Origin: a virus
Taxonomy: Duplodnaviria; Heunggongvirae; Uroviricota; Caudoviricetes
Direction: 5' to 3' (one strand)
IMG/VR virus record: IMGVR_UViG_2563366891_000011
Location: 1-30,301 of that record
DNA: 30,301 bases
The notes beneath the pieces were generated by a model that saw only the letters and a program-made list of their open reading frames with translations, was not told the DNA's origin and searched no databases. Below are positions 18,988 to 22,668 of this stretch, piece by piece. The translations under genes were made by a program, and so were the position numbers. Positions within the stretch are counted from its first letter, which is position 1; every line of letters begins with the position of its first letter.

Positions 18988-22668
<3,681 letters not shown>

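Follow-up and report, generated by a model that had tools for sequence, protein, structure and literature searches.

A DLP12-type prophage with an amber codon in its portal gene

The window, by which we mean the whole 30,301-nt stretch of DNA that was analysed, is a full-length DLP12-type lambdoid prophage whose sequence begins with the stop codon of an intD-type integrase gene. The early genes are followed by an S24/HTH CI-type repressor gene, a CII-like gene, Q, an ompC/nmpC-like porin gene, a lysis cassette and the late genes from Nu1 to the start of H. Outside a mosaic immunity region the window is 99.7-99.9% identical to prophages of E. coli ST3 and KK19-02. Over the 17 kb from the porin gene to the window end, comparison with ST3 reveals no indel and fewer than 20 substitutions. 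The mosaic part is the immunity and early-regulatory region at 4166-7662, where the window is either unalignable with ST3 or ~95% identical to it. This region contains the HTH and S24 repressor gene (5169-5855, minus strand), a YdaS-like gene (5993-6241) and the CII-like gene (6231-6821), and the immunity type differs from that of ST3 on an otherwise near-identical prophage.

An IS200-type insertion of 712 nt encoding a Y1 transposase (PF01797, E = 5e-38) occupies 12571-13282 on the plus strand, as delimited by its junctions with the ST3 sequence. Its insertion point directly follows the T-run of a strong hairpin terminator (12533-12570), which lies ~140 nt downstream of Q. Since this terminator is probably tR', the insertion is placed in the late-operon leader between Q and the lysis genes, and it may represent a second lesion affecting late expression. 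It is absent from ST3 and from the DLP12-type prophage of the E. coli chromosome OZ040122.1 described below, and is present in scaffold KB732307 of E. coli KTE21. Between Q and the lysis cassette the prophage carries, as cargo, an intact gene for a 360-aa OmpC/NmpC-like porin (13294-14376, minus strand), which is oriented against late transcription. Its counterpart in K-12 DLP12, nmpC, is disrupted by IS5.

The lambda B-type portal gene lies at 21087-22688 on the plus strand. Its translation gives 533 codons and a terminal TAA, with a single internal stop, a TAG at codon 265. The gene is equal in length to lambda B (NC_001416, 2836-4437) and 97.9% identical to it in nucleotide sequence over 1,602 of 1,602 nt. 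It stands between W and C in the order Nu1-A-W-B-C-D-E with B overlapping C, and both the order and the overlaps are identical to those of lambda. Full-length homology and synteny thus identify the gene as encoding a lambda gpB-type portal, while the reading frame that should run uninterrupted through wing, stem, clip and crown is broken at codon 265. PF05136 (Phage_portal_2) is recorded on both halves of the gene.

The amber codon, Q265am, occupies 21879-21881 on the plus strand and differs from a glutamine codon by a single transition, C to T at 21879 (C793T of the portal gene). In base-by-base comparison the corresponding base is C, giving CAG, in lambda NC_001416, in PhiR49_1 and in the prophages of E. 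coli ST3, CEA212U and KK19-02, which are the three closest to the window. A preliminary description of the sequence had reported a portal gene of exactly lambda B length with one in-frame TAG, had given CAG as the lambda codon at this position and had described the surroundings as intact and in frame. Translation and the alignment to lambda B bear out the first two statements. The third holds as well. In the 18 other late genes checked, from the holin gene through tail gene T, the reading frames are free of internal stops, and alignment to ST3 shows no indel.

The remaining differences from ST3 in the portal gene (G849, E305D and R306K) form a common haplotype that occurs with CAG, and 459 complete-genome records match the G849/D305/K306 haplotype with CAG at an identity of at least 99%. 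Since the rest of the haplotype is common with CAG, the T at 21879 is the sole private change of the allele. The two substitutions E305D and R306K (window 22001-22003), which distinguish the window from both lambda and ST3, sit in a surface loop of gpB (residues 303-319) that is disordered in cryo-EM.

Distribution of the amber allele

The exact 264-aa product that the stop would leave was found in 94 blocks of public assemblies and on 45 contigs. Its sources were E. coli KTE21, the complete chromosome OZ040122.1 and gut metagenomes. Database entries for it read 'portal protein B [Escherichia coli KTE21]' (ELC41082, ELC43058 and ELC43232), and EOU67702 is a further record of the same sequence. 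At the DNA level, three KTE21 scaffolds, two places in OZ040122.1 and three ENA metagenome assemblies yielded TAG-bearing sequence, and the T was also present in Logan. Over 16.8 kb, the KTE21 scaffold KB732307 differs from the window by a single mismatch, which falls inside an IS200 copy. The window must therefore derive from KTE21 or from an isolate nearly identical to it. A literature search for KTE21 returned no papers.

Beyond these sources the allele is rare. In 3,183 complete RefSeq E. coli records, 4,495 homologous places were compared and none perfectly matched a 63-mer containing the TAG, whereas the corresponding CAG 63-mer was perfectly matched in 2,923 of these records. Exact scans with a TAG-bearing 36-mer gave no match in GTDB species representatives, IMG/VR or JGI metagenomes, and none of 80 phage records has TAG at this codon. 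The preliminary description had named a common occurrence of TAG among close relatives as an observation that would speak against its interpretation; TAG is found at none of the E. coli places and in none of the phage records.

The TAG-bearing copies are separated by only 0-3 SNPs over ~12 kb, none of them within the portal gene. This near identity indicates that the lesion is young, as does the intactness of all the other late genes. The same intactness carries no information on continued selection in either direction, since the allele is confined to a lineage of low diversity. The TAG is a real mutation restricted to one lineage, which is represented by KTE21 and OZ040122.1.

Predicted effect on the portal protein

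The lambda portal protein matches the solved structure 8K38 over residues 1-533, and related entries exist. The gpB monomer consists of a wing (residues 24-249 and 368-452), a stem (250-279 and 343-367), a clip (280-342) and a crown (453-511) (PMC10721106). On this structure codon 265 maps to the centre of the first stem helix (250-279). In a suppressor-free host, translation would halt midway along this helix, and the predicted 264-aa product (21087-21881, plus strand) would comprise most of the first wing segment and half of the helix. Downstream of the stop lie the clip, which is the docking site for terminase and gpW, the second stem helix, the half of the wing that contains the tunnel loop, and the crown. 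A product without these elements would be unable to form a dodecameric portal. In lambda, B is an essential gene (PMC10695390, Table 1). We infer that the allele is null in a suppressor-free host. Induction would then be expected to lead to lysis with release of tails and of DNA-free, aberrant head structures, and few or no infectious particles would be produced.

The distal part of the gene contains an in-frame open reading frame of 260 aa with a GTG start (21906-22688, plus strand), which gene callers annotate as a second 'portal' fragment. Reading the sequence directly, we saw no convincing Shine-Dalgarno sequence before the GTG at 21906 or before the ATG at 21915, and the 260-aa protein is probably not made in useful amounts. 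It would in any case miss stem-helix residues 265-273. A functional portal split into two polypeptides is unlikely. An intact third lambda-type portal gene, if the genome had one elsewhere, could complement the defect in trans.

The same allele in two co-resident prophages

OZ040122.1 carries the TAG in two prophages. One is of DLP12 type and resembles the window (locus L007); the other is of Qin type (locus L006) and is recognized by ydfT, cspB, IS200C, essD, rrrQ, gnsB, ydfO and nohA. The Qin-type prophage shows no difference from the window over 18222-30301 and differs from it only upstream of 18222. This interval, on the plus strand, is the morphogenesis module, which contains Nu1, A, W, B, C/Nu3, D, E, FI, FII, Z, U, V, G, T and the start of H and continues past the window end; it is identical in the DLP12-type and Qin-type prophages that carry TAG. 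Compared with each other over 12.1 kb, the two prophages of OZ040122.1 differ only at the FII-Z junction, by a 43-nt indel and two SNPs. Since these copy-specific differences were retained, the assembler must have resolved the two copies. A pair of KTE21 loci (L008 and L009) likewise share an identical morphogenesis tract.

The 43-nt indel corresponds to a tandem duplication at 26205-26290 of the window, at the FII-Z junction, with units starting at 26205 and 26248. It doubles the Shine-Dalgarno sequence and the ATG of tail gene Z, the first copy being out of frame with Z. The duplication is polymorphic between the prophages of OZ040122.1 and is missing from the DLP12-type one.

The relation of the Qin-type prophage to its orthologue in strain WCHEC4533 changes along its length. 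The left 7 kb differ by two mismatches, while most of the morphogenesis module shows 11-45 mismatches per kb (1-4.5% divergence), with 3-9 per kb at 17-19 kb. The same module is nearly identical to that of the DLP12-type prophage of ST3. Both signs of recombination between prophages are seen, namely an identical tract shared by two prophages and a tract that diverges from the orthologue next to a matching left flank. The identity of the two modules, together with the divergence of the Qin-type one from its WCHEC4533 orthologue, indicates that a tract of at least 12.1 kb, amber codon included, was copied between co-resident prophages. From the similarities to ST3 and WCHEC4533, transfer would most simply have gone from the DLP12-type to the Qin-type prophage, and the mutation would first have arisen in the DLP12-type copy.

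The left end of the shared tract differs between strains, being at window position 18222 in OZ040122.1 and at 18802 in KTE21 and one metagenome, which suggests that more than one conversion event may have taken place. What appears as a third copy in KTE21 begins at the end of a scaffold and may reflect redundant scaffold ends instead of a third prophage. In a gut-metagenome contig (ENA ERZ1308114; locus L010, 1-3290), genes for an ABC transporter, ZnuA and Usp lie directly upstream of the porin gene. This contig has the TAG-bearing late region and lacks the prophage early region; it represents either a third genomic context, produced by an early-region deletion, or a chimeric assembly.

In the Qin-type prophage a copy of IS200C lies between the antiterminator and csp genes and the lysis genes (L006, 2122-2580), a position analogous to that of the IS200 in the window. 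Two prophages in one genome thus each have an IS200 copy upstream of lysis. The Qin-type insertion is the older one in the sense that it is shared with WCHEC4533, a relative that has CAG (L016, 2122-2580).

Discussion

In our view the findings are probably explained by a real and heritable Q265am knockout of the essential portal gene that was spread by conversion between co-resident prophages. A C-to-T nonsense mutation would have arisen once, on an ordinary natural allele of a lambdoid prophage at the DLP12 site. Homologous recombination (gene conversion) would then have carried the TAG, within a tract of at least 12.1 kb reaching from Nu1 to H, into a Qin-type prophage, and as a result at least two portal copies in the OZ040122.1 genome would be dead. 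The preliminary description had offered three options, a natural knockout, a suppressible allele and a sequencing error. The first is supported, the second applies in a formal sense only, and the last is excluded.

One alternative is that inactivation was not neutral. It could be adaptive, as in host-selected domestication that leaves no complementing copy, or it could result from site-specific damage to lambda-type portal genes. In favour of this, the dead allele is present in both co-resident modules, that is, in every co-resident copy seen. In addition, a prophage in E. coli KTE19 has lost its portal to an independent lesion only 3 nt away from the TAG. That prophage is lambda-like and unrelated to the one in the window, and its portal gene (KE136672.1; L014, 9183-10783) has lost a single A at nt 796, changing CAG AAC to CAG -AC. 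The same deletion was present in an independent Logan assembly (SRR652402; L015, 5270-6870) and was absent from the complete RefSeq E. coli genomes (4,495 places). Since the KTE19 locus is 3-4% diverged from the window module throughout and shares no identical tract with it, the deletion must be an independent event; we saw no exchange between the two loci and no shared lineage.

However, a single neutral conversion event suffices to account for two TAG copies, and the closeness of the two lesions is less striking than it appears. The KTE19 deletion was reached through a 260-aa C-terminal portal fragment (P0030), and the length of such a fragment confines the lesion to about nt 781-819, a span of ~40 nt, within which we calculate a chance of roughly 1 in 6 of falling within 3 nt of the TAG. 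Neither lesion occurs at any of the 4,495 complete-genome places, which contradicts a species-wide hotspot, and reading of the sequence revealed no repeat or quasi-palindrome at the site that could template either change. A mutational hotspot at nt 793-796 is weakened by these observations and by the divergence of the KTE19 locus, and we treat the proximity of C793T and the deletion at 796 as probably coincidental. Overall, we consider adaptive or site-directed inactivation very unlikely.

Another alternative is that the allele remains functional because the stop is read as glutamine, either by a natural amber suppressor, for example a supE-like CUA mutant of glnV or glnX, or by efficient read-through of UAG-A. 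Insertion of Gln at codon 265 would yield the wild-type portal, and both prophages would be viable. Mutations from CAG to TAG are precisely those in which a Gln-inserting suppressor brings back the wild-type residue, both 12-kb modules are otherwise intact, and the allele has persisted long enough to be copied and to be sampled in many data sets. The base following the stop is A, and classical context studies found that an A after the stop favours suppression. Glutamine is also a documented near-cognate insertion at UAG, as reported for near-cognate tRNA-Gln in an RF1-deleted strain (PMC6207430).

Against this, the TAG is confined to a lineage with only 0-3 SNPs over 12 kb, in which intact neighbouring genes are uninformative, and among 80 phage records no functional phage shows TAG at this codon. 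The window and 11 related loci, the TAG-bearing ones among them, are devoid of tRNA genes, suppressor tRNA genes included, and a phage-borne suppressor tRNA was rejected on this ground. The RNA on the 3' side of the stop is unremarkable; a 100-nt segment starting at the stop has no better predicted folding than shuffled sequences (z = -0.31), and CAG alleles have the same sequence there. Functional relatives do not conserve the stop, which is found at none of the 4,495 complete-genome places and in none of the 80 phage records. Programmed read-through or recoding is accordingly not supported. We regard a functional, suppressed allele as very unlikely. The block may nevertheless be slightly leaky, since near-cognate Gln would yield wild-type protein at a low level, and such leakiness could matter because only 12 portal copies are needed per virion. 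Even when combined, host-side disarming of portals for non-neutral reasons and a TAG kept readable by a host amber suppressor are unlikely.

The reading that the T is an artefact of sequencing, assembly or polishing, or a contamination from a laboratory lambda B-amber vector, can be taken as effectively refuted: short-read polishing can homogenise single-base differences inside multi-copy repeats and all three KTE21 copies are located at scaffold ends, but the identical allele recurs in the Broad KTE21 draft, in OZ040122.1, in three ENA metagenome assemblies and in Logan, which come from separate projects and technologies, the two prophages of the complete OZ040122.1 chromosome retain copy-specific differences inside the tract, no lambda record among the 80 phage records carries TAG at this codon, and the backbone is that of a natural DLP12-type prophage 2.1% diverged from lambda, for which reason a laboratory lambda Bam allele or vector was rejected.

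The preferred explanation, a natural knockout copied between prophages, can be set beside three known systems. Classical lambda B amber mutants, such as Bam1, are laboratory conditional-lethal portal alleles that were used in Charon and EMBL vectors. The allele described here has an amber codon in the same gene, belongs to the CAG-to-TAG class that a Gln-inserting suppressor can restore, and is predicted to have the same phenotype of normal tails and lysis with no functional proheads. It may thus be regarded as the natural counterpart, in functional terms, of these mutants. Unlike them, it is natural and resides in a DLP12-type prophage. Among the 80 phage records, no deposited record of lambda or a lambda derivative has TAG at codon 265.

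The second system consists of the cryptic prophages DLP12 and Qin of K-12. The early and lysis side of K-12 DLP12, with intD, quuD, an nmpC/ompC-like porin gene, essD, rrrD and nohD, has its like in the TAG-lineage DLP12-type prophage. The Qin-type prophage of the lineage resembles K-12 Qin in the same way (ydfT, cspB, rrrQ, gnsB, ydfO and nohA). The K-12 elements are presumably truncated after nohD and nohA, respectively, with loss of all head and tail genes. Unlike them, the TAG-lineage prophages are full length, and their decay amounts to one stop codon and the IS200 insertions, a much earlier stage. The cryptic DLP12 and Qin of K-12 are late-stage versions of the same two prophage types.

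The third system is the prophage pool of E. coli O157:H7 Sakai, in which near-identical morphogenesis genes are shared, several prophages have portal or head defects, and recombination takes place between prophages (PMC2669165, Asadulghani et al. 2009). At the sequence level the TAG lineage likewise has co-resident lambdoid prophages with shared morphogenesis genes, a portal defect and recombination. The lineage differs from Sakai in that its defect is a single clean nonsense codon duplicated within a 12.1-kb tract, so that sharing spreads the defect instead of complementing it.

The event described here is ordinary early prophage decay, a natural knockout of a known kind that calls for no new mechanism and leaves knowledge of phage biology unchanged. 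For annotation, it means that the two 'portal protein B' open reading frames of KTE21-type genomes are a single pseudogene. For those inducing phages from the TAG lineage, lysis with no plaques on sup0 hosts is predicted. With one nonsense codon in an essential head gene and a lambdoid prophage that is otherwise complete, the window captures prophage decay cleanly, and in datable form, at its first step, and it illustrates that recombination among co-resident prophages can spread a null allele, beyond merely rescuing defects.
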